64,000 nt of DNA from a virus. Its lineage: Duplodnaviria > Caudoviricetes. This document shows, in pieces, positions 2,455 to 63,957 of the stretch. Each line of letters begins with the position of its first letter. Position 1 is the stretch's first letter. Where the stretch lies: IMG/VR virus record IMGVR_UViG_3300025606_000003, positions 32,001-96,000 of that record; one strand, 5' to 3'. The translations under genes and the position numbers were made by a program. The notes under the pieces are model-generated. The model was not told the origin of the DNA and made no database searches. It saw only the letters and a program-made list of their open reading frames with translations.

Positions 2455-2483
2455 TATATGCCCGGTTTTTGCCCAATATTTAG
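2455..2483 (-). promoter_or_regulatory. Bipartite promoter CTAAATA-N14-GGCATATA (copy 1)
   Basis: Identical boxes and 14-nt spacer length at 63253-63281 and 63929-63957. Confidence 0.7.
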
Positions 2484-3499
2484 TACCGGAGCCGGAGGCC
2501 GCTGGCGTAGGCGCTGTACTTGTAATTGCTCGTTACTTCGCCGTAGCAACCCTCAAGATTCAGGCTAGCTTTGGTAGCGCGCACCCACTCGCGGTACGCC
2601 TGCCAGCGCATTTGCCCGGCCTGCTCGTACATGGGCGCCTTGTTCTGGTCGTTGATCTGCATGCCCGCGGCGGCATACTGAAAATCATTCCGGCGGTACT
2701 GCTCGGCCACCATGAAGAACAGGTTGGCCACAATTCCTTCCAGCCAGTGATAGCGGAACGGAAAGTTTTGCGTGTTGTAGACGGCGTCAATCGGCGGCGG
2801 GATCTCGTTCCAGTACATAACCGGCCGCGCGATCGCCAGCGCAATCTCGGCGTCATCAAACATGAGGTTATCGAGCAGGTAGCTTTCGCCGGGACTTGAG
2901 TCGCGCAAATGCAGCCGGATTTCTGCGATGCTGGGCGGCCCACCGTTTTCATTGTCTGGACCGAACAGGCTGCGCGTTATGACCAGCGAGAACGTGTTAG
3001 AGAACACGACGCACGGCAGGTCTTGGCTTTCTGCGACTGTGCTAACCAGCGCCATCTCAGCGTAGTAAATACCTGGCAACTTCGTCATCTCGGCGGTCAA
3101 CTCCGCCTCAACGCGCCCTTCAGCCGCGTTTACGACCGCGGCCTCGACTTCAAATGGCGGGCGTGCATTGCCCCACGACAGTTGCTCTTTCAACCGAAGC
3201 ACGACGCGATAGTCGATTACCGTAGACGAGCTTTCTAAGTCTTCTGGAAAGCCGCACGCTTGCAGACTTACTGGGCGCCCCTCTTTGTCGTGCAGTTGCC
3301 AGGCGACTGTCGCGCACTGGCCCTGGTTCACAGCAATAGACCGCATACGCCCAAGAACAGGCGCGCCGTTTACTGTGCTGACCGAAGCGCTGAGAATGTT
3401 CTGCCCAGCGCACGACACCGGAAAAAGACCGCCGACGGTTGTAATCGGCGCGGGTGTCGGGATTACGGGCTGAGAAGCTGGCGTAGCAATCACAACCAT
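2480..3499 (-). CDS. Probable head-tail adaptor with N-terminal BppU-like Ig domain
   Basis: 339 aa; N-terminal NAAEGRVEAELT...PGIYYAEM; C-terminal EIRLHLRD...FDDAEIALAI...YWNEIPP helical domain; downstream of the capsid gene. Confidence 0.5.
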   Translation of the reverse strand: MVVIATPASQPVIPTPAPITTVGGLFPVSCAGQNILSASVSTVNGAPVLGRMRSIAVNQGQCATVAWQLHDKEGRPVSLQACGFPEDLESSSTVIDYRVVLRLKEQLSWGNARPPFEVEAAVVNAAEGRVEAELTAEMTKLPGIYYAEMALVSTVAESQDLPCVVFSNTFSLVITRSLFGPDNENGGPPSIAEIRLHLRDSSPGESYLLDNLMFDDAEIALAIARPVMYWNEIPPPIDAVYNTQNFPFRYHWLEGIVANLFFMVAEQYRRNDFQYAAAGMQINDQNKAPMYEQAGQMRWQAYREWVRATKASLNLEGCYGEVTSNYKYSAYASGLRLRY

Positions 3500-3578
3500 A
3501 TCGTCACCTCGCGCAGAAGAGCGTAGATATCACGACAACAAAAGTGATAAAGATGGCGCGCATGGCGAATACCTACGA

Positions 3579-3612
3579 GAAAAGGCTGGCCGCTTGCGCA
3601 GCCAGCCTTTTC
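3579..3612 (-). terminator. Intrinsic (bidirectional-type) terminator after the capsid operon
   Basis: Inverted repeat gaaaaggctggc/gccagccttttc with A/T tails. Confidence 0.75.
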
Positions 3613-3639
3613 AGTGGTCACGTTAGCCGGCAACAAAAC

Positions 3640-4005
3640 TCAGTCGTCGTTCTGTACCCAGTCGGACGTGCCGGTCCCAGCCGGATCCCAGCCGGGATCG
3701 ACCGTGCCGAGCACGCGACCGTGCAGCGCCAGGGCCGCCGTCGTGTCGTCTGTCGTGCTCTTGAGGTAGACGGCCGGGGAGCTGACAATCTTGAGGCTGC
3801 CGCCCACCAGCGCGGCCTCGAGGGCCTTGAACTGACGCAAGCTGCGCTTCGCGCCGAGCTTCGTTACAAGGTCGCCCGGGACCGTGTACGTCTCGTTCGC
3901 CTCAAGACGCTTGCCGTGCGTGCCAAGAAAACCGAACACCGCGGTGGCGCCCGACGTGTTCTCAACCGTGGTGTATAAACCTGTGGTAACCGGAACGTAT
4001 GTCAT
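3640..4005 (-). CDS. Hypothetical virion protein
   Basis: 121 aa, SD acggag upstream, in the capsid operon. Confidence 0.6.
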   Translation of the reverse strand: MTYVPVTTGLYTTVENTSGATAVFGFLGTHGKRLEANETYTVPGDLVTKLGAKRSLRQFKALEAALVGGSLKIVSSPAVYLKSTTDDTTAALALHGRVLGTVDPGWDPAGTGTSDWVQNDD

Positions 4006-4021
4006 GAATTTCTCCGTTTCT

Positions 4022-4405
4022 TTACTCGGCGTTGCTCGCGGCGAGCGCGGCAGCCGATTGCAGGGTCAGCACAGCCGACGCGATGTCAGCCTGATTCGCC
4101 GCGGCGCGGGCAACGTCGTCCCACGCGGCAGCCTTTTCTGTTACGGCAGCGCCTGGAACACCTAACAGGGCGTCCAGCTGATTGCTCGCAACAGTTAACG
4201 CCGAAACGTTAGCAGCCGCGGCTTTCTCTTGCTCAACCGCGTAGAGCACGTGGAGCTTTTGCGCCACGGACCACATTTCCGCGGCTTCCTTTTCAGAGCG
4301 CGGCGCGACGCCGTTCGCGGCGAGCTTCTCGAAAAAGTATGGCGCTGCAAGCTTCGCCACAATTGTGTTGTATGCTTGCTCGGCCGCGGCCTTCACATTG
4401 TCCAT
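4022..4405 (-). CDS. Ala-rich head protein with K-x-A motifs
   Basis: 127 aa, SD aaggagg; VKAAA, EKLAA, EKAAA x2. Confidence 0.65.
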   Translation of the reverse strand: MDNVKAAAEQAYNTIVAKLAAPYFFEKLAANGVAPRSEKEAAEMWSVAQKLHVLYAVEQEKAAAANVSALTVASNQLDALLGVPGAAVTEKAAAWDDVARAAANQADIASAVLTLQSAAALAASNAE

Positions 4406-4428
4406 GGTGCCCTCCTTGGCACAGGGTT

Positions 4429-4461
4429 GGGAGGCGGGCGTTTACAACGCGCCCGCCTCCC
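4429..4461 (-). other. Strong stem-loop after the major capsid gene (mRNA stabiliser/attenuator)
   Basis: 12-bp IR gggaggcgggcg/cgcccgcctccc with no U-tract. Confidence 0.55.
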
Positions 4462-4479
4462 GTCCTCAGTTTAGAAACT

Positions 4480-5406: not shown

Positions 5407-5445
5407 TATGGAACCTCCATGTTCCGTGGGTGATTAGGGGTGGAC

Positions 5446-5994
5446 TCAGGCGGCCGCGCCGGGGAGCCACACAGTCCAGAAGGACAGCGCGAAAACCCCA
5501 TTGTGGTTCTTGGCCTTGCCGCTCGACACCACGCCGACCACCGGCGTGACATACTGCGTAACGGACGCATTGGTGATCCGACCGCCGGTCGTGGCATTCG
5601 AATCCGAAGCCACAGCGGTGAGCAGATCGCCCGGGGTGTAAGTCCGACTCGTGTCGAACTCACTCGACGCAATTTCGTAACCGCCCGTCGCCACGAGACC
5701 AGACATCTTGCCGGTCGGGGCGATGGCCCGGTGCATGAAGTTGCCAGAGGCAGTCGTGCCGGGGTTGCTGACGTCGGCGTCGGTCGAGCCGTTCAGCAGG
5801 AAGATCGCTACGCCGGTACGATGCGCGCCGGGACGGAAGTCGCCCGCCGAGTCAACGTACACGACGCGGCCGCGGGGCACGTCAAACGAGACACTGGCCG
5901 ACAGCTTGGCGTCGTAATCGAGCGCCGCCATGTCGAACCAGCCCTTTTTGACATCCAACCCCTTTTCGGTGATCAGATTCGGAGCAGTAGCCAT
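5446..5994 (-). CDS. Probable capsid decoration/cement protein
   Basis: 182 aa, beta-rich (YTPGDLLTA...VVGVVS), SD ggaggt, directly upstream of the MCP gene. Confidence 0.55.
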   Translation of the reverse strand: MATAPNLITEKGLDVKKGWFDMAALDYDAKLSASVSFDVPRGRVVYVDSAGDFRPGAHRTGVAIFLLNGSTDADVSNPGTTASGNFMHRAIAPTGKMSGLVATGGYEIASSEFDTSRTYTPGDLLTAVASDSNATTGGRITNASVTQYVTPVVGVVSSGKAKNHNGVFALSFWTVWLPGAAA

Positions 5995-9364: not shown

Positions 9365-9375
9365 GGTATAGGTAC

Positions 9376-15415: not shown

Positions 15416-15439
15416 GCCGGTACTCCCTGTGTAAGCGGT

Positions 15440-15859
15440 TCAGCGCAGCATCGGCGTCTCAACGGTCACGGTCAGCGCGAAGTCTTTGCTGCCCGTGCCA
15501 GACGGTTTGATCCACAGGTAAAGATATCTTTGGGGATTCGTCGGCGAGCCGTCACGGTTGATGTACGCCACATTGATATTGCTGTTTTCAGCGATATCTA
15601 CAACGTCCGGGTCTTCTACAACGTCGGCAAAATCAGACAAGCTCAACACGTGAAAAGACTCGGCCGGCAAAGACGCGTTGGGCTCTGTTTCCTGGTTGCT
15701 GGCATACAGATCGGCCTCGAAACCCGCCTTGGCGCCGGTGCGCTGCACGAGCTGATAGCCGCGCAGCACGCCACGGTGCGGCATCGAGATCGGGACGATT
15801 GTCTCCGCACCGCTCGCCGCCGAAAAAGCCTTCGTACCGGACCAGATAGTGCTAGCCAT
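15440..15859 (-). CDS. Hypothetical beta-rich virion protein
   Basis: 139 aa, SD aagggtg. Confidence 0.55.
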   Translation of the reverse strand: MASTIWSGTKAFSAASGAETIVPISMPHRGVLRGYQLVQRTGAKAGFEADLYASNQETEPNASLPAESFHVLSLSDFADVVEDPDVVDIAENSNINVAYINRDGSPTNPQRYLYLWIKPSGTGSKDFALTVTVETPMLR

Positions 15860-15868
15860 TGCTCACCC

Positions 15869-18280: not shown

Positions 18281-18367
18281 AGCCACCTCCGTGCGGCGTA
18301 GCGACAAATGACACTGATAACTCAACAATTTACCGTGTCTAAGCTCTTACATCCTACCGAAATGCGA

Positions 18368-20242
18368 TTATGGGCGCCATCCGCTTGTGGCGCCCGTTAC
18401 GCCAAACTGTTCGCCGCGAGCCAGCGCCGGCACAAAACTGCTGCCAGATGTGTCGCTAACTCCGCCGTGGTGTACGCTGTCGAGCAGGCCCTTTTGCTGG
18501 TAAGACCCGAGCATCCGCGTCATCCAGTCCTGGTCGTTTGAAATGTTACTCATGCCGCGAACCATTTCCGGCTGAAACGGCGGCGGCGTCCGGTGCGCTT
18601 CGATGTTATTGATTCCGTACTTCTGCAACGTATCGGTCACATTTTTGCCGATTTTTGTTCCAACAGAATAGTGCAGCACTGGGCGCTCTAAGTAATGCCC
18701 CGCCAGACTTTTTGGCGCGCCGGTCACGCTACCCGGCCGCGGCTGCCAATTTCGTTCAACCATCGAATACGGCACGATATCGTCGGGGTTGTAATCACCG
18801 TACTCGTCGGTCATTCGCACGTGGTTTACAAGCCCGCGCGCCAGCAGCTCGATATTGCGCCGCTGCGGCGTAATTCCTGAGTTCTGCATAACCTGCCGCA
18901 TAGCTGACACAAAATAGCGGCGCCCTTCGCCAACGCCCTTGTGCCGCACTATTTCGGCCGGACTGGGCATACCGTCTGACAGCACGTCGCCGGCTTCCAG
19001 CGAATCGCCTTTCTTCACGATGACTTGCCGGTCGGCCGGCACGTAATGGTCTTGGCTGTTGACCTGCACGTAAAACCCGCCCTGGGGCGCTGGTCGGATT
19101 TCTTGTACGTGCCCGTCAAACTGCGCATGTGTCGCGCCGTCCGGATATGTTTTCGGTACCTGCACAAGCGCATTGATCGCCTTAAAACCGGCGATTGAAC
19201 CGGCGCCGCCGACGCCGCCGGAGTGCTTAGAGCTAATCTGCGCCTGCGTCACGGGCTCACCTAACGCCTGCGCGGCCGCGATACCAACGTAATCGCCGAC
19301 AGGTGGTAATTTTCCTTTTTCCCGATAACCAACGTCACGCGCAAATACGCCGCCATCATCCGGGCCGCCCACCGTCGGACTGCGCACGAGAATATCTTTC
19401 ATGCCCATTTCTTTGATGTCGCGAAGAATCTTCGGCGTCAGCATCGTGTTGCGCTTGTACGGGCCGACCGGGCGCGCTAGCAGCGCGCCCTCGTTGTCAG
19501 AGTCGTCGACATCGGTCGGAAAGCCTCGGTCAACAGCGCCAGCTGCGCGCTCTTCGTCGTCATCGTCATCAGATGTAACTAGCAGCCGGTGCGTCATCTG
19601 TGAAAGCTGCTTGCTGAAAAACCCAGCGTCGGCGGTCGCTGTTTTTAGATCCATGACACCTTTACGCGTGCCGAAGGCGCCGGCGAAATATTCAACGGGC
19701 CGGAGCCCCTGACCGTAGCCGTGCAGCACCGGAATCGGAATCGGGTCGTTCTTGTGGTCGACATACTGCATGTCGGCCCCAATCAGCGAATTCAGGCTGA
19801 ACTTGTTGCCCTTGCCAACGCCGATGACCTGGTGCGCCAACGGGTTATCAAAACCTTTTGCTTCGTCGTAAACTTCGTTGACGAGCGAGCGCTGCGTGTC
19901 GCCGGCCAGCTTTAAAATTTTCAGTGTGCGCGCTTTTTCATCCAAGCTGCTGTCTGACAGAATTCCGCGCAGCTGCTGGTTAACTCTGTGTCGCGCGTTC
20001 TGGACCGCCACGGTGGCTTTGATATCTTTGAGACCGAACGACAAGCCGTTGGTGGTATAGCTGGCTTCGCGCCCCACGTCGTGCAACCGCTTCATCACGT
20101 CGCGGTATTTCTCGGGATATTTTTCAGCCAGCGTTGTCGCGAGCTGGGCCATATCTTTTTTTGTCAGCACGCGCTCGTAGTTGCGTAAGTCTTCTGGCAA
20201 CGCGGCGTTAATGAGTACTTGGCCGAGCGTAGTTTTCAGCAT
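18368..20242 (-). CDS. rpoC: DNA-directed RNA polymerase beta' subunit, C-terminal half
   Basis: TTLGQ start; GLRPVEYF..AFGTRKG...TADAGFFSKQL (bridge helix); GDYVGIAAAQALGEPVTQ..SKHSGG (trigger loop); RNIELLAR. Confidence 0.9.
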   Translation of the reverse strand: MLKTTLGQVLINAALPEDLRNYERVLTKKDMAQLATTLAEKYPEKYRDVMKRLHDVGREASYTTNGLSFGLKDIKATVAVQNARHRVNQQLRGILSDSSLDEKARTLKILKLAGDTQRSLVNEVYDEAKGFDNPLAHQVIGVGKGNKFSLNSLIGADMQYVDHKNDPIPIPVLHGYGQGLRPVEYFAGAFGTRKGVMDLKTATADAGFFSKQLSQMTHRLLVTSDDDDDEERAAGAVDRGFPTDVDDSDNEGALLARPVGPYKRNTMLTPKILRDIKEMGMKDILVRSPTVGGPDDGGVFARDVGYREKGKLPPVGDYVGIAAAQALGEPVTQAQISSKHSGGVGGAGSIAGFKAINALVQVPKTYPDGATHAQFDGHVQEIRPAPQGGFYVQVNSQDHYVPADRQVIVKKGDSLEAGDVLSDGMPSPAEIVRHKGVGEGRRYFVSAMRQVMQNSGITPQRRNIELLARGLVNHVRMTDEYGDYNPDDIVPYSMVERNWQPRPGSVTGAPKSLAGHYLERPVLHYSVGTKIGKNVTDTLQKYGINNIEAHRTPPPFQPEMVRGMSNISNDQDWMTRMLGSYQQKGLLDSVHHGGVSDTSGSSFVPALARGEQFGVTGATSGWRP

Positions 20243-21174: not shown

Positions 21175-24100
21175 TTAACTTTCGACGATGTGCACCGGGG
21201 AGTCGACGTCAAGTTCGCCCCGGCGGTAAGCGTTAATTGCGTCCTGCGTGCTGCGATATACCCTGGGCTTAGCTTTTTTATCGATGCGGCTCGAGGCAAG
21301 ATACACACCGGTCTGATAGTCCGCGTTCGGCACGTAATGCGCCTTGAAGTTGGATGTTGCAAAAAGGTTTTTGCTGGGAAGCATCTTTTCGACTGCTTCT
21401 TTTGCAGCGTCTTCTGTGCTGGGAACGTGATATTGCATCGCGTCTCCGTCAAAGTCGGCACCAAAACCTTTTGTAATGACCGGATTAACCTCCATGACCT
21501 TGTTTTTTGTAAGCTTTGGATAGAACGCCATCATACCGTATCGGTGCAGAACCGGCGCACGGTTGATAACGATAGGCCGAGACGACATCTGGGTCTCCAG
21601 CTCTGCCATCGCCTGTTTATTGCGGTCTTCGACAGCCTGCAGCGCCTGCATGCGCGGTAACCCGCGGCGCACTAGCCCGCGCACAACAAACGGCTTGTAA
21701 ACGGCCCAGGCCTTGTCTTCGGGCAGCGCGACCTCGTCCATGTTCAGGTCTGGGTTCGGCGTGATCACCGCCCGGCCCACAAGGTCAACCGTGGTGCTGA
21801 GCAACTTACGCTGCACGGTGCCGTATTTGGGCGAAGAGCCAAAAATATGGGACAAGAAGCCTTTCACGCGGCGTTCCTGGTTTTTTGGCTGCGTCGGATC
21901 GCCGAGCCCGGTCACGGCTTTCATAGTGTCGTACAGCGCCAGCCGTTCGTCGCCATAGCTTTCAAGCGCACCAGATGCCTCTTTCAAAGTGCTGTTGGCG
22001 TCCAGCAGTTCTTTGTAGAGATAGTTCGCATCGGCAACCAGGGGCAGTTTTTTATTACCCATTGTGCTGACCGGCCGGAAGAGCGGCGGCAGGACGGGCA
22101 TTTTTGTCAGCATCCAATCTTTGGGATGCACGCCGGTCTGCTCTGCGTTCTTCAAGTATCCCAACTTGCGCACCGCAGCGTCGCGCAGGGTCTTCCGGCC
22201 GGACTTGATATCTTCGCGCACCTGCTCGAGCATTTTTGGCAGGTTAATCCGAGATAGCGCGTTTTGAATCGCTTTGGGCCCAGTCTCGTCGTGGATCTTG
22301 GCTTCGCCTGCGAGCACGTTCCGGTACTCTTTTTCAGTCAGCCCAAGCACGCGACGAATAGGCTCTTCCATGACCGGATTCGGCATCGGTTCGTGCAAAG
22401 ATATCTTTGCCCACCGGTTGCCGCCGTGGCCGCCCGTAAGTTTTTCGTCGAAGAGGCCGCCAGCAATCGGCTTCAATCGGCCCTTCCAGTCGACGGTTTC
22501 AGAATTCTCGATTTCGCGACCGCCCGCCATGTCATCGACGTCTTTGTCGGTCAACGCCATGATGTGCGTCTGGCTGCCAGTGCGCACGGTGTTAATACCG
22601 GCGCCCTTCAGCTGGTTAACGAACTTTTCGTAGACGTGTGGCACCTTGGGCAACGGCGGAGTGTATCCGGCCATAAATTGCGACCAGTACTCTGGGTTTG
22701 CTTGGCCGCGCACCATCTTGGCGTCCCGGATTACTTTTCCAGCGCCGTGCGACAGTAACGCGCCAAGATCCAACATTCCGACGCGTTTAGCACCTTCGCT
22801 GCCGCCCTTGGCCGGAGTGCCTTCGGCTGTGTAACTACCCATCGCGCGGCCTTGCCCTTTGCCTTCGGCCGTGTGGTGCAGCTTCATAAAGAACCGGGAA
22901 CCGGTCAGCACGCCTTTGATCTTACGACCGGTTTCCGGATCAACTACGTCCTCGGTATCAGAGAGGCCGTGCTTCCCAAGCTCTTTTTGAGCGAAATCAA
23001 CAAGATCAACACTGCCGTCAAAGTCTTTGAGTTTGAACGGCTGACCCGTTTTGGCTGCAACTTTTCCAAGCGCGGCCTCGATCACCTGCGCGGGATTCAC
23101 GCGGCTGATAAGTCCAAGCGGGCTGACCAGCACTTCATACGGACTGCCGTCTTTATCGTGCGGCATCTGATGGTCAGGCACAATATCGGCAACAACGCCT
23201 TTGTCGCCGTATCGCCCGGTCAGCTTATCGCCAACCTGCATTTCCGCCTGTGTTTTTACGACGACCTGCACACCCTTGTTGGTATGCGCAACGTCGGTCA
23301 CGATACCGGGCGAATGATGATCCCAGGTTTCCGACTCGTTTGAGAAGTTGCCGGCACGCCCGCGGTGCACTTTGCCGTACGTTGTTTCTTTGGCCTTGGC
23401 GTGCAGGATTAGCGGATCACCGAACTGCACAACGGCGCCCTTCTTGATCGCGCCTTTGTCGTCAAAGTTATCAAGCTGCTTTTTGTCGTACTCGCCGGGA
23501 AACAACGCAATAAATGCTTTCTTGCCAGCGTGGCTCGAGTCTGTCCATTCGGCGGCATGCTGATACATGTGCTCGCTGGTCAGCTTGCGCGCTGTGCTTT
23601 GACTGATCACAACCGCGTCTTCGTAGTTCTTGCCGTGATACGGCAAATACGCCACGCGCAAATTTTTACCCAGCGCTGCAGAACCGGCCGGATCTGTAAA
23701 GTTTGAGTGCGCCAGCAGCTGCCCCGGTTGAATAACGTCGCCAGGCTGCACCGTCGGTGTTTGATGCCAAAACGTTTTCCGATTGAACGGGTGCTCGTTA
23801 TACAGATCAATATCGTGTTTGTTGCCGTCGCGATCGCGCAGCACCATTTTGCCAGGTTCAGTTGAAACAACTTGCCCGTGAAATTGCGCGCGTACAGCGC
23901 CCAGCTGCTCGCCCATTTCATCTTCGTGCGACGTGCCGTCTTTGCCGATAATAGCTGACTGCACGTGTGGCGCTTCAGGTCCAACCAGCGGCAGCGCTTG
24001 CGTGAACATGCGGCTCGCCATGATCACGCGGTGGCCCTTCATGTAAGACTTCATCGGCACCATGTTAGACAGCGCCGAAAACGTGTTGTCCATGTGCGGC

Positions 24101-26583
24101 AGGCTGTACTGTACTTGCTCGCGCGGCATGTACTTCATCTTGCCGTTGACCATCGCGGCAATCATGGGCAGCGTGCTTTTTTCTTCGCCCGGAAACGCCA
24201 GCGGCAATTCAGCCAGCTCGCCGGGTGTTTTGTACGTTGTCTCGCCTGTGCGCGTGTCAATTACGGGTGTGTAGATTTTGCCATCAGCGCCTTTGCGCGC
24301 GCCACGAGCAAAGCGCATGTCGACACCGACTTTTCCGCTGTTGCCGCACCAAAAACCGCAGCCGCCTTTTCGGCGCACGTAAAGCAGGCCGCCGGGCACG
24401 GTCGCGCAATACACCAGGCCGTCGTACTGTTGCCGGAAATAATGGCATTCGCCCTTGGGCGTATTCGGCAGCACTTGATGGCTAGTCTGTTTGTGTACGT
24501 GCACGACCCAGCAGCCGCCGACCGCTGCGTGAGGGCGCTTGTCGCGCTCGAACACGACTTTGCATGAATAACCCAGCCCAAAAGCCAGCCGCTCAAAATC
24601 AAGCGCGAGCTGGTGGCTGGCAGTGCAAAAACAAGTTCTTTCGCCGCGCTTGTTCTTGCGCCCTTCACTTTTCATCAGCGCGTCAAACAACCGAAAGCGG
24701 GCAGAAACCGGCGCATCCAAGAACTCTTCTGGGATCCAGCGGCCCGGGCTGCCGTGGAATTGCTTGAAATACGCCGCAACTTGTTTTGTCGCGATCGAAA
24801 ACGCCTTGCCGTGATAACCCCACTTAAACGGCAAGCGGCTCAACAACGCGCGGATTTGGTCGCAGTTTTCCGGATTGTGCTTTTGGCACTGCGTGATCTT
24901 AATCTGAAATTGCGACTTCTCCGGGCGATACACGCAGCTGCCCTCGCCCAAATACCAGCCGAGCAGTTCTGCCCAATCGTCCAACAAAACGTTGCCGACG
25001 ACAACCCGGTTATTGCTCTCGTAAACCGGCGCCGGAATGCTAAACACGGCGGCAGAAACGCCGCTGTACGGGTCAAAACCGGCAGAAAGAACACCGCGAA
25101 ACTTCAAGTGTGTCGTTTCGGCGGATTCGATTTTGTACGGCGCGCCTTCGTAAAGCGAGCGCACATACATCCGGTGATTCGGCGTCACAAGATAGTTAAT
25201 CTTGCCGGTAGCAGCGCCGTACATTTCGCCGACGTAGCGCGATTCGTGCAACTTTTCTGCCTTGTGGAACTCGAGCTGCCCGGCGACCAGGCAGGCAAAC
25301 TCGTCTCGCTCGGTGACGTCTGGCCACTTTTTCCAGCCACCGCGCGTCATAACCTCGGTTTGACTGTCGTAGCACTCGGGCGTGCGCAAGAAATCCACAA
25401 AACCAAGATGACTCGGCTGTACGCTGCGCGATTCTTGCGGCACGGCGTCAAGCGACCCGATGCCGCCTTCGCCCATGCGGGTCACGCGGGATTGATGATC
25501 GAAAATCTCGGCCGGATTGATTTCTTCAAGCGAGCTGCCCAACCCAGAGCCAATCAACGCAGCGCTGATGCCCTTGTTGAACACGCCAGTCGGAAGCCGA
25601 TCAAGATTTTTCTTGGCGGTTGCTTTCCAGAGAATCTGCCGCAACGTCTGCCGATCTTTTGTAAACCGCTCGGCGATCAAATCTTCCGGACCCACAACAG
25701 ATTGGTACGCCATGGCGTCGCGATCGTCCGGGTCGGCTTCTTTGCGATTGAGCGCGATGAGCTTCTTAGTGATCGCCAGAATTGCGTCCGGCGTAAGATT
25801 TTTGTATTCAGCGCCGAGCGTGCGCCGCGTGACATCTGGATCCATTTCCATGCGCGCAAATTCGTCGGCGATGGCTTTTTGTTTGCCGGCCGCGTCAATG
25901 CCCGGCACTGGTTTGTACACAAGTCGCTGGTACAGTTTGTCTAACGTGCCCGCGTCGCCTTTCTGCATATTGACGGCTGTAATGTCGTTGCCCCACGCAG
26001 CACGAATATCCTGATCGTGCGCGCCCATGGCTTTCAACAATGGCAACAGCGGAATTTTGGCCTGCCCAATATTGATGTTGAGCACGCCGGTTTTTGGATC
26101 CAAAAAGTAACGGTGCATGCGTCCTTTGCCAGGAAGCACATTGACGTGGGCTTCCAGCTCGCCGTTATCTTTTTCACGGGTGTAGACGCCGGGCTTCAGC
26201 CGCATCTGGTGTGCCAGCGTGTATTCAACACCGCGGTTCACAAACGTGCCAGAATCCGTGAGATACGGCACATGCGCCAGTGTTGTTTGCCGGCGGGCGA
26301 TTGGCTGGCCCGTCACATTGTCGGTAAGCGACCACGTGCCGGTCATACGCCGGTGCATAGAGTTACCGGTCAAAATAGCCGTCTTTTGATCAGCCTTGGT
26401 AAAACGCTCCGGCCCCGTGTACTTCACATCATGAAGCTGGAGCGTATAGAGATCGTTTTTAACCGGCTCAAGCGACGACGCACTGCGGAGCGCGCTGTCA
26501 AAGATGTTGTTACGCAGCGAACTGATGTCGCCAAACGCGCGCATTTGCGGCGCCGGAGAACCTGGAAGCATCGAGTCTGGCAT
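21175..26583 (-). CDS. rpoB: RNA polymerase beta subunit fused to the catalytic beta' N-terminal half, intein-containing
   Basis: Beta motifs GTFVNRGVE, RTPE/SGKVG, GKNYEDA, GDKLTGRYGDKG, MKLHH, PHVYEKFVNQLKGAGIN; then beta' motifs GGLFD, PKDWMLTKMPVLPP, NRAPVLH, GADFDGD (DFDGD at 21442-21456). Confidence 0.92.
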   Translation of the reverse strand: MPDSMLPGSPAPQMRAFGDISSLRNNIFDSALRSASSLEPVKNDLYTLQLHDVKYTGPERFTKADQKTAILTGNSMHRRMTGTWSLTDNVTGQPIARRQTTLAHVPYLTDSGTFVNRGVEYTLAHQMRLKPGVYTREKDNGELEAHVNVLPGKGRMHRYFLDPKTGVLNINIGQAKIPLLPLLKAMGAHDQDIRAAWGNDITAVNMQKGDAGTLDKLYQRLVYKPVPGIDAAGKQKAIADEFARMEMDPDVTRRTLGAEYKNLTPDAILAITKKLIALNRKEADPDDRDAMAYQSVVGPEDLIAERFTKDRQTLRQILWKATAKKNLDRLPTGVFNKGISAALIGSGLGSSLEEINPAEIFDHQSRVTRMGEGGIGSLDAVPQESRSVQPSHLGFVDFLRTPECYDSQTEVMTRGGWKKWPDVTERDEFACLVAGQLEFHKAEKLHESRYVGEMYGAATGKINYLVTPNHRMYVRSLYEGAPYKIESAETTHLKFRGVLSAGFDPYSGVSAAVFSIPAPVYESNNRVVVGNVLLDDWAELLGWYLGEGSCVYRPEKSQFQIKITQCQKHNPENCDQIRALLSRLPFKWGYHGKAFSIATKQVAAYFKQFHGSPGRWIPEEFLDAPVSARFRLFDALMKSEGRKNKRGERTCFCTASHQLALDFERLAFGLGYSCKVVFERDKRPHAAVGGCWVVHVHKQTSHQVLPNTPKGECHYFRQQYDGLVYCATVPGGLLYVRRKGGCGFWCGNSGKVGVDMRFARGARKGADGKIYTPVIDTRTGETTYKTPGELAELPLAFPGEEKSTLPMIAAMVNGKMKYMPREQVQYSLPHMDNTFSALSNMVPMKSYMKGHRVIMASRMFTQALPLVGPEAPHVQSAIIGKDGTSHEDEMGEQLGAVRAQFHGQVVSTEPGKMVLRDRDGNKHDIDLYNEHPFNRKTFWHQTPTVQPGDVIQPGQLLAHSNFTDPAGSAALGKNLRVAYLPYHGKNYEDAVVISQSTARKLTSEHMYQHAAEWTDSSHAGKKAFIALFPGEYDKKQLDNFDDKGAIKKGAVVQFGDPLILHAKAKETTYGKVHRGRAGNFSNESETWDHHSPGIVTDVAHTNKGVQVVVKTQAEMQVGDKLTGRYGDKGVVADIVPDHQMPHDKDGSPYEVLVSPLGLISRVNPAQVIEAALGKVAAKTGQPFKLKDFDGSVDLVDFAQKELGKHGLSDTEDVVDPETGRKIKGVLTGSRFFMKLHHTAEGKGQGRAMGSYTAEGTPAKGGSEGAKRVGMLDLGALLSHGAGKVIRDAKMVRGQANPEYWSQFMAGYTPPLPKVPHVYEKFVNQLKGAGINTVRTGSQTHIMALTDKDVDDMAGGREIENSETVDWKGRLKPIAGGLFDEKLTGGHGGNRWAKISLHEPMPNPVMEEPIRRVLGLTEKEYRNVLAGEAKIHDETGPKAIQNALSRINLPKMLEQVREDIKSGRKTLRDAAVRKLGYLKNAEQTGVHPKDWMLTKMPVLPPLFRPVSTMGNKKLPLVADANYLYKELLDANSTLKEASGALESYGDERLALYDTMKAVTGLGDPTQPKNQERRVKGFLSHIFGSSPKYGTVQRKLLSTTVDLVGRAVITPNPDLNMDEVALPEDKAWAVYKPFVVRGLVRRGLPRMQALQAVEDRNKQAMAELETQMSSRPIVINRAPVLHRYGMMAFYPKLTKNKVMEVNPVITKGFGADFDGDAMQYHVPSTEDAAKEAVEKMLPSKNLFATSNFKAHYVPNADYQTGVYLASSRIDKKAKPRVYRSTQDAINAYRRGELDVDSPVHIVES
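24340..25374 (-). mobile_element. Intein with LAGLIDADG-type homing endonuclease (345 aa)
   Basis: Starts CYDSQTEV after RTPE; TPNHRM block B; LLGWYLGEG and LFDALMKSEG; VYCATVP block F; ends WCGN|S. Removal restores TPESGKVG. Confidence 0.9.
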
Positions 26584-52527: not shown

Positions 52528-52651
52528 GCGTAATCCTCCGTGACATGTGACAAATACGCCCAGGTTGCCCAGCAAACCCGGCTGCGCGACACCAACGTCC
52601 AGTGTTAGTGCGGCCCTGATTATACAGCAGCTGGAAAACCAAACTGCAGGC

Positions 52652-55600
52652 CTAAATTCGCGATTTGTTAGCGGCTAGATATGCAGCCGCCGCGCCTAAA
52701 CCGCCGCCGCCTAGAACGCTGCTCCAGTACAGCAGCGGATTTGTGTCTTTTTTGTTGCGGGTCAGATAGTGCCCCAAAGCTGCGCCGGCCGCGGTGCCGC
52801 CGGTGGTATATCCGATATGCTTGAGTTTGTCCCGGAAATTGATCAGCGCCTCAGCCTTGGGCAGGTAATTCCCGGTTTGATCTGCGTAACCGGGGCCCGG
52901 ATTCTCCGCCTCGAGCCGGAATTGCTGCTGGTCAGTCGGCAAAGACTTGTAAAAGTCTTCCATGAGCTTGACCTGCTCTTCATGCGGCATGAACCGGGTA
53001 GTAACCTCAAACGGATTGATCCGCTGGCCGGCGCGCTGAGCCACGAAATCCTCTAGCTTGCGGCCCATCCAGTCGCTGTAACGCGTGCCCGGCGGCGCCA
53101 GCGTTTCCGGTACAGCCCTGTCAGAGAGCCGCGCCTTGAGCTGGTGCATGTAAGCTGCTACCGGGCCGCGCGAGAACATTTCGTAATGCGCCATACCGCC
53201 TACGCCCCGCTGCTCGGCAGGCGTTTTCAGCAAATACGGCTCTGTGCCAAGCCGTTTCATCAAAGTCGGCGAGCTGCGCAGCTTGACCAGTAACTCGCCG
53301 ACAGGGATACCAAACGGCTTGAGCTGCGCGCCGGGGCTGAGCGTTTTCTGGTAATAGGTCAAGCCAGTGTAGTTCGGCGGCGGCGTGTTGTTTCGAAACA
53401 CGTTCGGGTCGTAGTTTTTGACAGCGGCGCGCACCCGGGCAACCTGCTCGTCGCTCGCAATACCGTAAGCACCGCCAACGCCAAGTTTGCCGGCCAATCC
53501 CAACGCCGGAATCATCCACGGAAGCTTCGCAGGTAACTTCGCAGGTAACTTCGCCGGGGTTTTCTTGTCGTCTGGCGAAGTCGCGTCGGACTTAGTTTTG
53601 GGCTTATGCTCAGGCTTGTCTGTGATTTTTGCCGTTTTTTGCTGCGTGCCAATCTCGCGCAGCAGCTGCCGAAACTGCTCGTTGAGATGTTCTTTTGTGC
53701 TGGCCAGATGCTGGATTACCTCATCGCCGGTGCGCTGCCGCCGCTGGCCAGTGAGCTTGCCGAGTAGCCCGGGCTCTTCGCTGCGAGATAGATATCTTTG
53801 CACGGCGACGTTCTTGAGCTCTTCCGGTAAACCATCGTGCGAATCAAATCTGAGGCCGCGACCCTGGGCTTGTTGCAGTCTGGCTTCGTTCCAGTACGGG
53901 TCGAGCAGCTGGATCAGGCTTGTACCCTTGGTACTCAAACCCTCGGCGCCAGCCGGGCCGATCAGCAGCGCCCGGAGTTTGCCCGCGTTATAGTCAGCCA
54001 AGGCCTGCTGACGTTGCTTGGTCGAGATACCGCCGTGGAAAATACCGTACGGAATTTTGTTCTCGGCCAGCCCAGCAGCATACGGACTCAAACCGGCGTC
54101 TACGAAGTTCGAGTAAATAATGGCCTTCTTGCGCTCGTCTGAGTTTAACGTCTCGCGCAGCCGCTTGAAGGCCTCCTGCAGCTTCGCAGATTGCTGGAAG
54201 GCCTTTAGCGGGCTCTTGTCGGCCCGGAACGGCTGCGTAGACAGAGATACCTGCCGCATGCCGGTCATGAAGCTGTTCAGCTTGGCCAGTTCTTCGCGGC
54301 TGAGGGGGAACTCTTGATCTAGCTTCCAGAGAAACCCAGGCGGTATCTTGGTCCGGATAGCTTTCTGAATACGCTGTTGCTCGGCGCTCAGCGGCACAGA
54401 CACAGTCTCTTCGTTGATATTCACGCCGGTGGGCGCTTTGCTGGGCTGGTAATCAATATGGCCCTCGAGCAGCTTGCGCAGTTTGGGGCCGTTCTTCATG
54501 ATCGGCGTCACACCGGTGCCGGCGCCGTGCAGAAAGCCCCAGAAGCTCGGCCAAACCTTCTTTTCGCCGATGAAGTCTTTGTCGAACTGCGCAGGGTCAT
54601 ACTTCTCGTTCCGAACAATAGATATCAAACTGGCCAGGTCTTTTGGCTCGTTCGTAATCGGCGTGCCAGTGAGCAGCATCACTCGTTTGGCGAGGCCGGC
54701 GTTTTGCAGGGCGGCTCTGCTCATGGCCGCGTCTGGATTGCGCAGCCGCGCGGCCTCGTCCATGATGAGCGTGTCAGGCTGCTTCTGGAATTTCTTGCCC
54801 ATTCCGAGCCCGGTGTAGCTCATGACTTCCGGATGACTATCAGTGAACTTCTTGATTTCTTTCTGAAAGTTCCCGCGCAGGCTGGCCGGCGCAACAATGC
54901 CGTAGCTGCTGCCGTCGAGCTTTTTGGCGGCTTCTGCTGCAGCAATCGCCGAGAGAGATTTTCCTGAACCTAGACCGTGATACACGATCATCCGGGGATC
55001 TTCGCCAGAAACCCGGTCAGCAATACGTTGCTGGTGTTCTTGTAGCTGGATTTCGGGCAGCAAAGCAGCTTGTTTACCCAGGCCCTGCACGTACTTCTGC
55101 ATGGCTTTGCGCTGGTGCTCGTCCAGCATCTCTACTACACCGTTTTGCGCCTCGTTAGGGACCATTTTTGCAGGGTCGATCGCCCAGTTGCGCAGCGCCC
55201 AGCCCCGCCGTGGCGTTGGGTTCTTGGCAAACGAACTGCCGTGCCGGGCTTTGAAGCTCAGCCAGCGCTTGATCTGCCGCGCGTCTTCATCTGGAATTCT
55301 GCGCCCAGAAGCATAGCGCTTGTACCACTGCGCCCAGCCTTTGGGATCATGCTCAGAGATCCACTCGGGCTTCCACTCGCCTAGACTGGCCAGTCTGGGA
55401 CCCTGCCCTCGGTACAGCGCGTCATACACGCCTAGGTTTTCAAGCTGCTCTGGCGTGTAGTCTGGCGTAAAGTCGGCAGCAAGCTTCGCCCACGCCCGGC
55501 CAGCTGCAACAGCTGCGCTATTTTTTTGCCGCGGCGGGAGGTTGTTGTAATACCCCTCCGATCCCGGCAGCGCTTCACCCGTAAAACCGTGATCATACAC

Positions 55601-57010
55601 GTACCGCTTACTGTGGTTGTACGTGCCTTTGAGCATAGACTGCAAAAAATTATCTTTCGAGCCCGTCTCGGGTTGCGTAGGTCCGATATCATACGCGGGC
55701 GCCGACCAACCGGACCGCCCGGGTCCAAGGCCGCGCCACGATTCGTTCCGTCTAAAAGCATTTTGCGGCCCCCAATGCTGGCCGTCCTCATTGTGGCCGT
55801 AGATGTGCGGGTCAACGGGGCCATCAGTTATAGGCATACCGTCAACAGTGCCTATTACTTCTGCATTGTCTTTTGGAAAAGTTATGCCAGTTGTTTTTGT
55901 GATACGCTTTTGTAACTCCGCCATGGACAGCCCAGCAGTCTGGTCTTGTGTGTCCTGCGGCGGCGCAGCAGCGTAGCTTTTGGGATTCCCGGCGGCGTTG
56001 TATTGCTGCATTTGCATACGCAGCCACGCCTGACCAGCGGGCGCGTTAAGCAGCTGCGTCATGTTCTTATCGCCACCGAGCGGCGCGTACCCATGTTGCT
56101 GTGCTTGTTGCCGCATCCAGTCAATCTTAGGCGCATAACCCGGGGCTAACGACACGCGAGCTTGCACCGGAGCGCCAGTGGCTGTGCGCGCAGCGTCGGC
56201 AGCATTTACAAACTCACCCATGACAGCGCCGGGCTCGTGAAAATGAGCGGAAGGATGTGCCTCGAAAGCGCCCGACATGGGCGTGACTTCCATGCCTGTA
56301 TCTTGAATCTGCTTCAATGCCGGCGGCGCTTGCGGCACATGTTCAAGTTCATGCAACCCAATAAGTGACCGGGGCAACGCTTTGCCCCACGTGTTGGCAT
56401 CTTGAAAGTAGTTTTTATCGCCCTCGTATTTCGTACCCATCCAATTGTTTTGCCCGGCGTACTGCTGTTTTGGATTGTTGGGCAAATTCAACGTAGGCGG
56501 TGCGGCGCCATGTGGCGTAACGTTTGAGCCCATGAGCTTGCCGGCGGGGTCTTCAACAAGCTCAAAAGGTGTCCGTTTCTGGACGTTCGCGATTTGGTCT
56601 TGAAATTTTTTATCTAGAACGCCGGTGTACCGTTGCATGCTATCAGGCTGCGCAACGCCCGATTGCGAAGCTGCCGGCGCATTATGTTGCTGCAAATGAT
56701 CTTGCACGGAGCGATAAAAATTTTGCCTGTTTTGGCCAAAATCGTGGTCATCCCCCGAGTAGTTATTTCTCATCCACGCGGTCGACGCGGCGGCCGTGGC
56801 CTGCGGCGTATTCAAAAACGGCAGTTTTGGCACGACCGTATTTGGCGGTGCAACGGGCGCCGCCGCTGAAGGCGCCGGTTTAGGAGTTGCTGGCGCGGGC
56901 GGCAGCGGCGTGGCAGCCTGCTTTGCCCACGCTTTGCCGGCAGCCTGCGCACCGGTCTCGTCGCCTGGCTCAGCGCCGGTTCTATCCAGACTGGGAGCGT
57001 TCTCGGGCAT
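52652..57010 (-). CDS. Polyvalent protein: HExxH domain + DPxGWxQWY domain + SNF2-like SF2 helicase + C-terminal membrane hairpin
   Basis: LHELEH; DPKGWAQWYKRY..GRR.PDED.RQIKRW; YHGLGSGKS, PASL, DEAA, LTGTP, WN..R..QAQGRGLRFDSH; boundaries WAKQAA, WAKLAA, GKQAA, QKTAK. Confidence 0.8.
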   Translation of the reverse strand: MPENAPSLDRTGAEPGDETGAQAAGKAWAKQAATPLPPAPATPKPAPSAAAPVAPPNTVVPKLPFLNTPQATAAASTAWMRNNYSGDDHDFGQNRQNFYRSVQDHLQQHNAPAASQSGVAQPDSMQRYTGVLDKKFQDQIANVQKRTPFELVEDPAGKLMGSNVTPHGAAPPTLNLPNNPKQQYAGQNNWMGTKYEGDKNYFQDANTWGKALPRSLIGLHELEHVPQAPPALKQIQDTGMEVTPMSGAFEAHPSAHFHEPGAVMGEFVNAADAARTATGAPVQARVSLAPGYAPKIDWMRQQAQQHGYAPLGGDKNMTQLLNAPAGQAWLRMQMQQYNAAGNPKSYAAAPPQDTQDQTAGLSMAELQKRITKTTGITFPKDNAEVIGTVDGMPITDGPVDPHIYGHNEDGQHWGPQNAFRRNESWRGLGPGRSGWSAPAYDIGPTQPETGSKDNFLQSMLKGTYNHSKRYVYDHGFTGEALPGSEGYYNNLPPRQKNSAAVAAGRAWAKLAADFTPDYTPEQLENLGVYDALYRGQGPRLASLGEWKPEWISEHDPKGWAQWYKRYASGRRIPDEDARQIKRWLSFKARHGSSFAKNPTPRRGWALRNWAIDPAKMVPNEAQNGVVEMLDEHQRKAMQKYVQGLGKQAALLPEIQLQEHQQRIADRVSGEDPRMIVYHGLGSGKSLSAIAAAEAAKKLDGSSYGIVAPASLRGNFQKEIKKFTDSHPEVMSYTGLGMGKKFQKQPDTLIMDEAARLRNPDAAMSRAALQNAGLAKRVMLLTGTPITNEPKDLASLISIVRNEKYDPAQFDKDFIGEKKVWPSFWGFLHGAGTGVTPIMKNGPKLRKLLEGHIDYQPSKAPTGVNINEETVSVPLSAEQQRIQKAIRTKIPPGFLWKLDQEFPLSREELAKLNSFMTGMRQVSLSTQPFRADKSPLKAFQQSAKLQEAFKRLRETLNSDERKKAIIYSNFVDAGLSPYAAGLAENKIPYGIFHGGISTKQRQQALADYNAGKLRALLIGPAGAEGLSTKGTSLIQLLDPYWNEARLQQAQGRGLRFDSHDGLPEELKNVAVQRYLSRSEEPGLLGKLTGQRRQRTGDEVIQHLASTKEHLNEQFRQLLREIGTQQKTAKITDKPEHKPKTKSDATSPDDKKTPAKLPAKLPAKLPWMIPALGLAGKLGVGGAYGIASDEQVARVRAAVKNYDPNVFRNNTPPPNYTGLTYYQKTLSPGAQLKPFGIPVGELLVKLRSSPTLMKRLGTEPYLLKTPAEQRGVGGMAHYEMFSRGPVAAYMHQLKARLSDRAVPETLAPPGTRYSDWMGRKLEDFVAQRAGQRINPFEVTTRFMPHEEQVKLMEDFYKSLPTDQQQFRLEAENPGPGYADQTGNYLPKAEALINFRDKLKHIGYTTGGTAAGAALGHYLTRNKKDTNPLLYWSSVLGGGGLGAAAAYLAANKSRI

Positions 57011-57076
57011 ACGGGCATCCTTGCCGAGAGCCAATAGATATCTTTGCGCGCAGCTCAGCGCGCAAGAGCTCTGTTA

Positions 57077-59027: not shown

Positions 59028-59081
59028 AACAACACGGAATTACGCAAAACTACGCAAGAATATGGCAGTATACCAACTAAC

Positions 59082-60636: not shown

Positions 60637-60671
60637 GGTTAGATATCCCGGTTAGATATCAATTAGATATC
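60637..60671. repeat. Three tandem TTAGATATC sites
   Basis: ggTTAGATATCccggTTAGATATCaaTTAGATATC in the intergenic gap. Confidence 0.9.
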
Positions 60672-62514: not shown

Positions 62515-62567
62515 GGCGCGATTCCCTATCAGAATAGCGTTATCTTAGCAAACTGATATGGAAAGCA

Positions 62568-62630
62568 CTGATAGCTAAAAAAAGGCCGCAAAGGCCTTCG
62601 TGGTGAGTTGACGGCGTCGCCAACTCACCA
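62568..62630 (-). terminator. Tandem hairpins, U-tract and TTAGCTATCAG box
   Basis: tggtgagttg/caactcacca stem; aaggcc-tttgc-ggcctt-ttttt merging into the box on the minus strand. Confidence 0.75.
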
Positions 62631-62634
62631 CTAA

Positions 62635-62793
62635 TCAGGTCACGTCCCAGCTGTTCAGCCGGACGTGCCGGCCGTCGAGGCTCTTGGCCACCAGGCGGTT
62701 CAGCCGGTGGTTGTGCCGCTTGAGGGCGCGGCGGATCTTGGCGGCGCCCCGCGTCTTGGGGCAGTGCCGCCAAGCCCGTTGCCAGTCGGTCAT
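62635..62793 (-). CDS. Small basic protein (52 aa)
   Basis: SD ggaggt; MTDWQRAWRHCPKTRGAAKIRRALKRHNHRLNR... Confidence 0.6.
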   Translation of the reverse strand: MTDWQRAWRHCPKTRGAAKIRRALKRHNHRLNRLVAKSLDGRHVRLNSWDVT

Positions 62794-63246
62794 GGTGACC
62801 TCCGGTGTTAGGCTGCAGGATTTACAAACGCATCCTGCTCGCGTTTCGCGGTGGCGGCTCGCTACGCCCAGCTGCACTTCCCAGCTGTATTACACCGGAG
62901 TTATCCGGCTTCACCAGAATTATCTGGGTCAGACTTCGTTGTACACCCGCCAGTCACGGCATGGGGGAGCGCCACTTCCCCTTCGCCAAGAGAGTTGCTA
63001 GCTCTTCTTGGCGCCATCACGAGCCGGGCGCTGGCGACGAGCGCCAACGGGGTTCGTGATGGGGCGGGCGACGACGGCAGCAACCTGCCACGACTTCGTC
63101 ACCAGCCGGCACCGACCACGACGGTAAGCCATAAAGCTATACCTCCGCGGGACGCATCTCGCTGCGTCCTAGCGTTCAGCTCGCGCCTACATAGGGCTTT
63201 ACGGGGGAGCTGAAGTCTCCCCGTACACAGATACGAATATCCGTGT
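62794..63246 (-). ncRNA. Candidate large structured RNA/leader (about 450 nt)
   Basis: At least 12 hairpins in series between promoter copy 2 and the 52-aa gene; no credible ORF. Confidence 0.6.
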
Positions 63247-63252
63247 ACATTT

Positions 63253-63281
63253 TATATGCCGTGTTTTTGGCCTGTATTTAG
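63253..63281 (-). promoter_or_regulatory. Bipartite promoter CTAAATA-N14-GGCATATA (copy 2)
   Basis: Exact boxes and spacer length shared with copies 1 and 3. Confidence 0.7.
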
Positions 63282-63295
63282 CTTGCAGCAAAACA

Positions 63296-63345
63296 GCTGA
63301 TAGCTAAGAGAAACCGAGCACGCGGAGCCCGTAGGCCCCGCTGCT
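63296..63345 (-). terminator. Hairpin + tttctc + TTAGCTATCAGC box
   Basis: gcggggcc-tacg-ggctccgc stem extended by agca/tgct, then the box. Confidence 0.6.
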
Positions 63346-63367
63346 GGTTTCCCCTGGCGCCGGTGGC

Positions 63368-63835
63368 TCAGACTGCCGAGCCGCAGCCGGTTGCGCAGGG
63401 CGCGCCCGGCGCGGCGACCTGCTGGTGGCCGCACCAGGTGCAGTTCACCAGCCGCTCGGTCTGGCTCTTCCGCGCGGCATCCAGCTGCTTGCGCAGCTTG
63501 AGGATCTCCGCGTCCCTTGCTCGAACTGTTCGCCACAGCGCAGCGGTCTCCGTCACCGGCGCGCTGTGATCGAATTGCCGCCACTCGCGGAGCTGGCGGG
63601 CCGCGTAGTCAACCGCTGTGACTACGCTGACAAACATTACGCCGCTGGCGAGCGCGGCCGTCGTCGCCAGGGCGGCGACAACCGGCCAGTGGGGCAGGTC
63701 GAGCACCGTCACTTTGGCGGCGGCCAGCACCGCGTCGAACGCGGTGAACGTGGCGGCGCCGGCGACCACGGTTGTGGCCGCCATGAGGACCAACCCGGCG
63801 GCCAGCCAAAACACGAACTTGACGAAATCGACCAT
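63368..63835 (-). CDS. Membrane protein with coiled coil and C-terminal Zn ribbon
   Basis: 155 aa, SD aaggagg; two hydrophobic segments; CTWCG...CATGC. Confidence 0.65.
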   Translation of the reverse strand: MVDFVKFVFWLAAGLVLMAATTVVAGAATFTAFDAVLAAAKVTVLDLPHWPVVAALATTAALASGVMFVSVVTAVDYAARQLREWRQFDHSAPVTETAALWRTVRARDAEILKLRKQLDAARKSQTERLVNCTWCGHQQVAAPGAPCATGCGSAV

Positions 63836-63928
63836 GATTGCCTCCTTTGGGCAACCCAGGAGTCTGCCTGAGACAGGAGTTCACCGGCGGCCAACGTACA
63901 TACGCCGACACTTACGGATTCCTCAATA

Positions 63929-63957
63929 TATATGCCCGCGAAACACCCGGTATTTAG
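63929..63957 (-). promoter_or_regulatory. Bipartite promoter CTAAATA-N14-GGCATATA (copy 3)
   Basis: Exact boxes and spacer length shared with copies 1 and 2. Confidence 0.7.

Follow-up and report, generated by a model that had tools for sequence, protein, structure and literature searches.

Jumbo phages that encode their own multisubunit RNA polymerase are described in reviews as lacking a sigma factor, and those that encode a sigma factor as lacking a polymerase and borrowing that of the host (PMC7824862, PMC13282480). We analyzed a stretch of 64,000 nt of viral DNA (hereafter the window; IMG/VR record IMGVR_UViG_3300025606_000003) in which a two-box element, CTAAATA-N14-GGCATATA, recurs on the coding strand. 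The window corresponds to bases 32,001 to 96,000 of a 107,035-bp viral contig from freshwater metagenomes (DNA), estimated to be 52% complete, and represents an uncultured phage with a genome of about 205 kb (hereafter the lake phage). The element is very probably a promoter, and the account that we favor with reasonable confidence is that it is private to the phage, being read by a phage-encoded sigma factor, most likely on the phage's own beta-beta' polymerase, and heads autonomous transcription units. Positions below are those of the window unless given as contig positions.

Several described systems share part of this arrangement. In SPO1 (gp28 and gp33/34) and T4 (gp55), a phage sigma-70-family protein likewise sets a promoter class unlike that of the host, but these phages have no polymerase of their own and re-program the host core, whereas the lake phage encodes beta and beta' as well; T4 late promoters are also single-box, and the lake-phage promoter two-box. 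Phages phiKZ and AR9 share with the lake phage a phage-encoded beta/beta'-like enzyme, with a virion-borne copy for early genes, but their enzymes come in 4-5 pieces and two sets, and no sigma homolog is present (PMC7598289, PMC5449584, PMC13282480). The lake phage has a single set, whose beta-beta' is fused and much closer to the bacterial enzyme, and it pairs a true sigma-70-family factor with a two-box promoter. The "moraphage" lineage (PMC12619734) was set aside as a separate clade without polymerase.

Cultured relatives with the same machinery are Salmonella phage Arash (OQ632216) and Vibrio phages D69, D181 and D148, all four of which encode a fused beta-beta' (31-33% identical) and a sigma homolog. 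Compared with the contig, the fused polymerase of Arash is 33% identical over about 80%, its sigma factor 25% and its helicase 33%; the Vibrio phages reach 31% for the polymerase and 29% for sigma, and among these four phages only Arash has a match to the SNF2-family helicase. The Arash sigma gene, gp10, is embedded among virion genes. In purified Arash virions, polymerase beta tops the spectral counts, and beta', the sigma factor gp10 (100% coverage) and the DNA helicase gp217 are also found, for which the authors propose a role in early transcription while conceding possible carry-over (PMC10585845). The word "promoter" occurs 0 times in the text of that paper (PMC10585845).

A precedent for the organization of the units is given by the promoter-early stem-loop (PeSL) cassettes of the T4-type phages RB49 and phi1, in which non-essential cargo is framed by short conserved modules of promoter and terminator (PMC2839356). 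The lake-phage modules similarly lie in variable regions, and their presence or absence among relatives fits modular shuffling; the PeSL promoters, however, are sigma-70-like and host-read, whereas the lake-phage promoter seems private and its terminator has a fixed 11-nt tail.

Copies of the element and their conservation

We searched the window for the exact pattern and found three copies, all on the minus strand, which carries nearly all long open reading frames (ORFs) and is thus the coding strand; 0 matches were expected by chance and 100 dinucleotide shuffles gave 0. Copy 1 is located at 2455..2483 (minus strand; 43.6 bits with a position weight matrix, PWM), copy 2 at 63253..63281 (minus; 46.2 bits) and copy 3 at 63929..63957 (minus; 38.5 bits). 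An earlier note, made from these letters alone, had described three copies with identical boxes, 14-nt spacing and coding-strand orientation, which the exact search and the shuffles bear out; it had also called the spacers divergent, but two of the three copies and most family members carry an A-tract there (gcCAAAAAc). Missing from that note was a conserved TG 4-5 nt past the downstream 8-mer, found at 2451-2450, 63249-63248 and 63925-63924 for copies 1, 2 and 3 respectively, and the start region of copy 1 is predicted at this TG. The TAA of copy 1 doubles as the stop codon of the gene at 2480-3499. Across the whole 107,035-bp contig, the three copies in the window are the only exact ones. 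Two degenerate copies are located past the high end of the window, at contig 96808-96835 (CTAAATC..GGCATATT) and contig 103782-103809 (CTAAACT..GGCATATT), and a contig search permitting spacers of 13-15 nt yielded no additional sites.

Relatives were found via the neighboring 614-aa protein, the sigma factor and the 339-aa protein adjoining copy 1. Five genomes were analyzed fully, namely the contig, two complete genomes of about 204 kb, a 205-kb genome and a 53-kb fragment, for a total of 773 kb. Using the pattern with a fixed 14-nt spacer and up to two mismatches, we identified 39 sites in these genomes, every one of them on the coding strand (39/39). A site-by-site check of 21 sites in three genomes showed that they are intergenic, in genomes where intergenic DNA amounts to only about 9%, and that the next start codon is about 20-100 nt away for most of them; the sites are positioned after terminators. 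A PWM scan of the five genomes returned 5, 9, 7, 9 and 9 sites of at least 30 bits, zero sites between 10 and 30 bits and zero on the other strand: the motif sites form a discrete class. Their family consensus is AGCTAAAT(A/T), a 14-nt spacer tending to gcCAAAAAc, GGCATAT, and TG 4-5 nt past the 8-mer. The earlier note had taken the element for a promoter that either the phage RNA polymerase or a sigma-like factor would read and had proposed a motif scan of the genome and its relatives; the 39-site comparison strongly supports the promoter, and a sigma gene is encoded outside the window.

The two boxes were also counted separately. For unpaired box 1 the counts are 34 on the coding strand and 30 on the other, and for unpaired box 2 they are 40 and 34, so neither is enriched on its own; because neither is commoner on the coding strand when unpaired, the two boxes would work only together. 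We then scanned 19 further sigma-bearing relatives with the pattern. The motif was present in 11 of 11 further sigma-bearing contigs (60 matches, on a single strand in each genome, versus 3 for a reversed-pattern control) and in 13 of 13 relatives whose sigma factor is at least about 61% identical, and it weakened below that value: at 61-66% sigma identity the motif is kept with 10-12 sites, at 53% box 1 changes to CTAAAA(A/C), at 44% two or three marginal sites are left and at 37% there are zero matches. As judged from these sequences, the shift of the motif with sigma divergence agrees with co-evolution of sigma and promoter.

To assign the motif to a class, we compared it with known promoter types. 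Box 1 to box 2 spans 29 bp, as in a -35/-10 pair of the sigma-70 family, and the distance is fixed, the orientation is that of the genes, the sites are intergenic and the phage encodes a sigma that covers both region 2 and region 4. From its position, polarity, fixed spacing and 29-bp span, we conclude that the motif is very probably a promoter of the sigma-70-family type. Box 1 (AGCTAAAT[A/T]) would be the -35-like element and box 2 (GGCATAT) the -10-like element, with transcription expected to start at or just past the conserved TG, some 5-7 nt beyond the end of box 2. A housekeeping sigma-70 promoter (TTGACA-N17-TATAAT, for which some 9 or more of the 12 positions should match, including A at -11 and T at -7) was rejected: CTAAAT matches TTGACA at 2/6 positions and CATATA matches TATAAT at 3/6, position -7 is variable and a consensus scan misses the sites. 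Promoters of the sigma-70 type are not enriched in the region either (3 versus 5.2 expected, and 1 versus 2.8 expected). A T4-type late promoter (TATAAATA or single-box CTAAATA) was ruled out by the counts of unpaired box 1 (34 versus 30). The phiKZ and AR9 polymerases read short single elements near the start site; a promoter of this type, without sigma, was ruled out by the presence of two boxes and a sigma homolog.

Sigma-28 (FliA/SigD, a group 3 sigma) recognizes TAAA-N15-GCCGATAA. All three window copies have this geometry, as TAAA-N15-(g/c)GGCATAT, so that the TAAA upstream, the distance to an 8-bp box read as nGGCATAT and the placement of ATA are the same as in sigma-28 promoters. The CGA core of GCCGATAA, in contrast, is found in 0 of 39 sites, where the box is GG(C/T)ATAT, and the probable phage reader best matches primary sigmas and not FliA. 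The statement in the earlier note that the element does not match sigma-70 and only loosely resembles sigma-28 is thus confirmed, the sigma-28 -10 core being absent.

The CTAAATA motif was then sought in Arash, where it is absent (1 weak match). A de novo k-mer analysis of that genome instead returned a motif of its own, ttccAnaa-N12-cTGGTATAAGtAAAGTGTAAA, whose upstream part is weak. GGTATAAGTA occurs 16 times versus 0.18 expected, and cTGGTATAAGtAAAGTGTAAA has 25-35 sites, which with few exceptions fall on the minus strand in the interval from 20 to 172 kb; this is the strand of the nucleotide-metabolism genes annotated at the start of the record. Arash thus differs from the lake phage in promoter sequence, in its weak upstream box and in copy number. 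When aligned on the downstream box, the upstream boxes of Arash and of the lake phages coincide, and GGTATAAG resembles GG(C/T)ATAT. A phage-encoded reader is favored because the two phage groups, of which one infects Salmonella and the other comes from lake water, share the layout and the machinery, not the exact words. We also noted that Arash terminators end in TTTTTAG(C), and that a repeat of about 100 bp, GGGGTTACAA...ACAACGTTTG, occurs in Arash at 26.7, 66.5, 100.2, 138.6 and 173.4 kb.

Polymerase and sigma genes and the likely reader

The window encodes RNA polymerase beta joined in one protein with the N-terminal half of beta' (21175..26583, minus strand, 1802 aa; Pfam Rpb2_6, E-value 3.6e-50, and Rpb1_2, E-value 6e-24) with an intact ADFDGD motif, and the C-terminal half of beta' (18368..20242, minus, 624 aa; Pfam Rpb1_5, E-value 4e-23), which has phrog_25354 in common with the fused gene. 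The beta part of the fused gene carries an insertion of about 345 aa (about 24340-25374, minus), missing in three orthologs, which starts with Cys directly past the conserved ...RTPE, ends ...CGN|S and includes a LAGLIDADG-like motif; from these features, it is probably an intein with a homing endonuclease. The ortholog of the fused gene in the relative G001 (14964-19379) has no intein. A SNF2-family helicase of 1460 aa is encoded at 52652..57034 (minus), and its Arash homolog adjoins a gene annotated as RNA polymerase beta.

The sigma-70-family factor is encoded at contig 16480-17328 (minus), some 15 kb beyond the window on its low side, in a block containing a sheath-like gene, and was identified from Pfam, NCBIfam, PHROG and a SigA alignment. 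It matches Pfam Sigma70_r3 above the cut-off (27.7 bits) and region 4 with an E-value of 1e-3, NCBIfam RpoD_Cterm over residues 97-270 (E-value 9e-10; FliA_WhiG only reaches 1.6e-3), and the PHROG "RNA polymerase sigma factor" (phrog_351), which groups ordinary sigma factors and not the T4 late sigma family. A profile built from 17 sigma homologs aligned to chains of solved SigA structures across regions 2 to 4.2 (E-value 2e-9). By eye, the aromatic residues with which primary sigmas melt the -10 are not kept in this alignment, a loss that would fit a non-canonical, non-TATAAT -10. Over the best 120 homologs, sigma is 66-83% identical and the neighboring protein 31-45%, and between the contig and one relative the values are 69% and only 45%; such constraint on sigma would fit a conserved DNA target. 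The three complete genomes searched for both (G001, G005 and G013) contain one sigma and one polymerase beta each.

We modeled the complex of sigma with residues 1300-1802 of the fused polymerase, together with 3 controls. The score was 0.74 versus 0.01 for the best control; 58 of 80 solved complexes attain that mark, as do 2 of 110 mismatched pairs. Runs share at least 43% of contacts and the partner pLDDT (predicted local distance difference test) is at least 64. The modeled interface places sigma residues 45-53 and 71-85 on polymerase residues 1513-1553, so that in the model sigma region 2 meets the predicted beta' clamp helices as in the textbook contact. Since such complexes have already been solved, the pass may show likeness and is not proof, and the model is compatible with use of the host core by sigma as well.

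From these observations we propose that the phage sigma is probably the reader of the motif and that its core enzyme is, by a narrower judgment, the phage polymerase. The specificity factor would be the single phage sigma-70-family protein, most likely acting on its own beta-beta' polymerase, and by analogy with Arash the polymerase may be virion-borne and fire the motif promoters early. Several points weigh against this proposal. The link to Arash depends on 25-33% identity, and virion mass spectrometry can detect abundant non-structural proteins, as the Arash authors state (PMC10585845). Plain phylogenetic divergence alone would make the motif fade with falling sigma identity in the same way. 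A genome of about 205 kb has only about 9 sites, so the motif is not the general promoter of the phage and defines a small regulon, so that one sigma would serve a small regulon or read something else too. The phage sigma could use the host core, like the T4 and SPO1 sigmas, and its target could instead be a second class of promoter-like sites. Sites of this class have a TATACT or TATAAT box, often preceded by a T-run or terminator but by no conserved second box (contig 31734; window 1815-1820, 52619-52624 and 59067-59072), and four genomes keep the TATACT box in front of the sheath gene.

Use of the host core by the phage sigma (sigma appropriation, as with T4 gp55 or SPO1 gp28), with the phage beta-beta' turning to other signals, is unlikely in our view, but it is the alternative that survives best. 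It is consistent with the phage sigmas characterized so far, which work on the host core, with the presence of other promoter-like boxes and with the lack of any alpha or omega homolog in the three complete relatives in which both were sought; reviews also state that known phage multisubunit polymerases are without sigma (PMC7824862, PMC13282480). Arash virions, on the other hand, hold sigma together with the phage polymerase subunits (PMC10585845), each of the three complete genomes pairs one sigma with one polymerase, and the model puts sigma region 2 on the phage clamp helices with the scores given above, although likeness may explain this.

We judge it improbable that the phage polymerase reads the promoter alone or with a non-sigma factor while sigma serves the TATACT/TATAAT class, for example at late genes. 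The phiKZ and AR9 polymerases do employ non-sigma specificity subunits, and both the TATACT box conserved before the sheath gene in four genomes and the place of the sigma gene among virion genes would suit such a division. Two boxes with a fixed spacer, however, typify a sigma that has both region 2 and region 4, and the phage sigma is without the aromatic residues that primary sigmas use on a TATAAT-type -10.

Reading by a host sigma alone, either sigma-28 or another alternative sigma, is very improbable. The geometry of TAAA, N15 and an 8-mer is that of sigma-28. A search for the host with the sigma profile against bacterial genome contigs matched only an unclassified contig of a metagenome-assembled genome (MAG), and one sigma homolog labeled as a betaproteobacterial MAG is a weak hint. 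Against this, the -10 is GGCATAT without the CGA core, the motif is kept over phages of 52-58% GC and changes as the phage sigma diverges, and the related layout of the Salmonella phage Arash follows neither the sigma-28 nor the sigma-70 consensus.

That the motif is not a promoter can be largely dismissed; it would then be an operator bound by a regulatory protein, a recombination site for moving cassettes, or a late box of the T4 type next to some unconnected element downstream. The sites are indeed found at cassette borders, but there is no enrichment of box 1 by itself (34 versus 30), the only sigma found groups with the ordinary sigmas of phrog_351 and not with the T4 late family, and strict strand polarity and a position before genes suit a promoter better than a symmetric operator.

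Transcription units, terminators and cargo

As the earlier note had it, every copy heads a unit that is closed by a hairpin and a tail, the tail being TTAGCTATCAG after the T-run. It occurs in four exact copies in the window, versus 0.36 expected with one mismatch allowed, and its family form, TT(A/T)GCTAT(C/T)AG, comes after the terminator T-run in three of three genomes examined. Unit 1 has a cargo of about 600 nt with no convincing gene (1846..2450, minus), which ends in a hairpin (about 1853-1878) and a T-run; its tail (1833..1843, minus) is followed by a TATAAT box and the start of the gene at 529-1809. The cargo of copy 2 (62580..63248, minus) begins with about 450 nt in which no gene is convincing, a candidate structured leader or RNA. 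A small Arg-rich ORF comes next, with its ATG at 62793 behind a Shine-Dalgarno sequence, then the terminator hairpins (62581-62599) and the tail at 62568..62578 (minus). Copy 3 precedes by about 95 nt a 155-aa ORF with hydrophobic segments (63368..63835, minus), for which neither Pfam nor PHROG gave a match, and the terminator of this unit (63297..63352, minus), with hairpin, T-run and tail (63297-63307), lies 15 nt upstream of copy 2. The tail of the unit preceding copy 3 is at 63986..63996 (minus), its hairpin being past the window end. We also observed a shared TGATAGGG(T/A)A on the minus strand at 2440-2450, shortly downstream of copy 1, and at 62528-62538, upstream of the start of the gene at 60670-62514, which may be chance.

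The tail was considered as a -35 box and rejected, as no downstream element stands at a constant distance from it. It is a candidate for part of the termination signal of the phage enzyme, for a processing site or for a recombination border. A search of viral contigs for the exact composite pattern of tail and promoter returned 0 matches. Each promoter would head a short autonomous unit that carries a small gene or a structured RNA and whose end is marked by hairpin, T-run and TT(A/T)GCTAT(C/T)AG.

The earlier note had placed large structured RNAs after two of the copies. Both stretches fold better than their shuffles (1846-2450, z -4.8; 62800-63248, z -5.9; both minus), but Rfam searches of the RNAs downstream of copies 1 and 2 returned zero families at gathering and at permissive thresholds; these stretches may be novel structured phage RNAs. 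A tRNA search of the window found none. Pfam and PHROGs searches with the genes beside or after the motif gave nothing informative except an AAT/NAAA-like hydrolase domain. Of the 9 sites in each complete genome, 6-7 are grouped within a region of 8-16 kb made of short units, each with a terminator.

We then compared the locus of copy 1 among relatives. The contig is syntenic with the 205-kb relative, but where the contig has copy 1 the relative shows just 57 nt between genes and lacks the motif. We surveyed 29 orthologous loci after the gene at 2480-3499: 13 have a gap of 6-65 nt and no motif, and the other 16 have the motif at or just past the stop codon together with 650-1400 nt of cargo, closed by the tail in several cases, so that at this locus the motif is present exactly where cargo is present. 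Comparison of the cargo units with relatives yielded no nucleotide homolog and an empty tblastx search; cargo is unrelated between genomes. As in PeSL cassettes, promoter and terminator modules flank a variable cargo (16/29 loci occupied and 13/29 empty), and judging from this distribution the terminator-promoter junctions appear to behave as movable cassette borders.

Other features of the contig were recorded. The near-palindrome CAAAGATATCT(T/A)T is strongly over-represented, AAAGATATCT occurring 13 times versus 0.19 expected; sites in the window include 60642-60673, 57037, 40076, 15523, 22400, 53791 and 54621, and most copies are inside long ORFs. It may be bound by a dimeric protein, be nicked or modified, or belong to a further class of signals. 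Three tandem copies of GATATCTAA are located just upstream of the gene at 59082-60611. The ORF at 38677-39708 (minus, 343 aa) matches the full profile of Pfam Volactin, an actin-like protein (E-value 2e-62). The coding strand past the window end, at contig positions of about 98271-100424, carries genes for five tRNAs (Thr-TGT, Lys-TTT, Leu-TAA, Val-TAC and Glu-TTC).

Significance for phage transcription

The clade of the lake phage combines a polymerase, a sigma factor and a sharply defined promoter that would suit a sigma-type reader, against the division drawn in reviews (PMC7824862, PMC13282480), and because it has all of these the pairing of polymerase and sigma is directly testable. The motif offers a precise DNA target for reconstitution of the enzyme, and Arash, with its own motif reported here, is a cultured stand-in. 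The motif is also a handle to annotate transcription units in hundreds of uncultured freshwater phage genomes of about 200 kb, and the cassettes point to unexplored candidate structured RNAs that would be expressed from dedicated phage promoters. More tentatively, and with somewhat less than even confidence, we suggest that the widespread lake-phage clade and, more distantly, Arash-like phages may possess a self-contained transcription system of bacterial type, in which a fused beta-beta' without alpha or omega, a true sigma and virion delivery would be combined with a private two-box promoter, terminators with a fixed tail and mobile cassettes that include large structured RNAs among their cargo.

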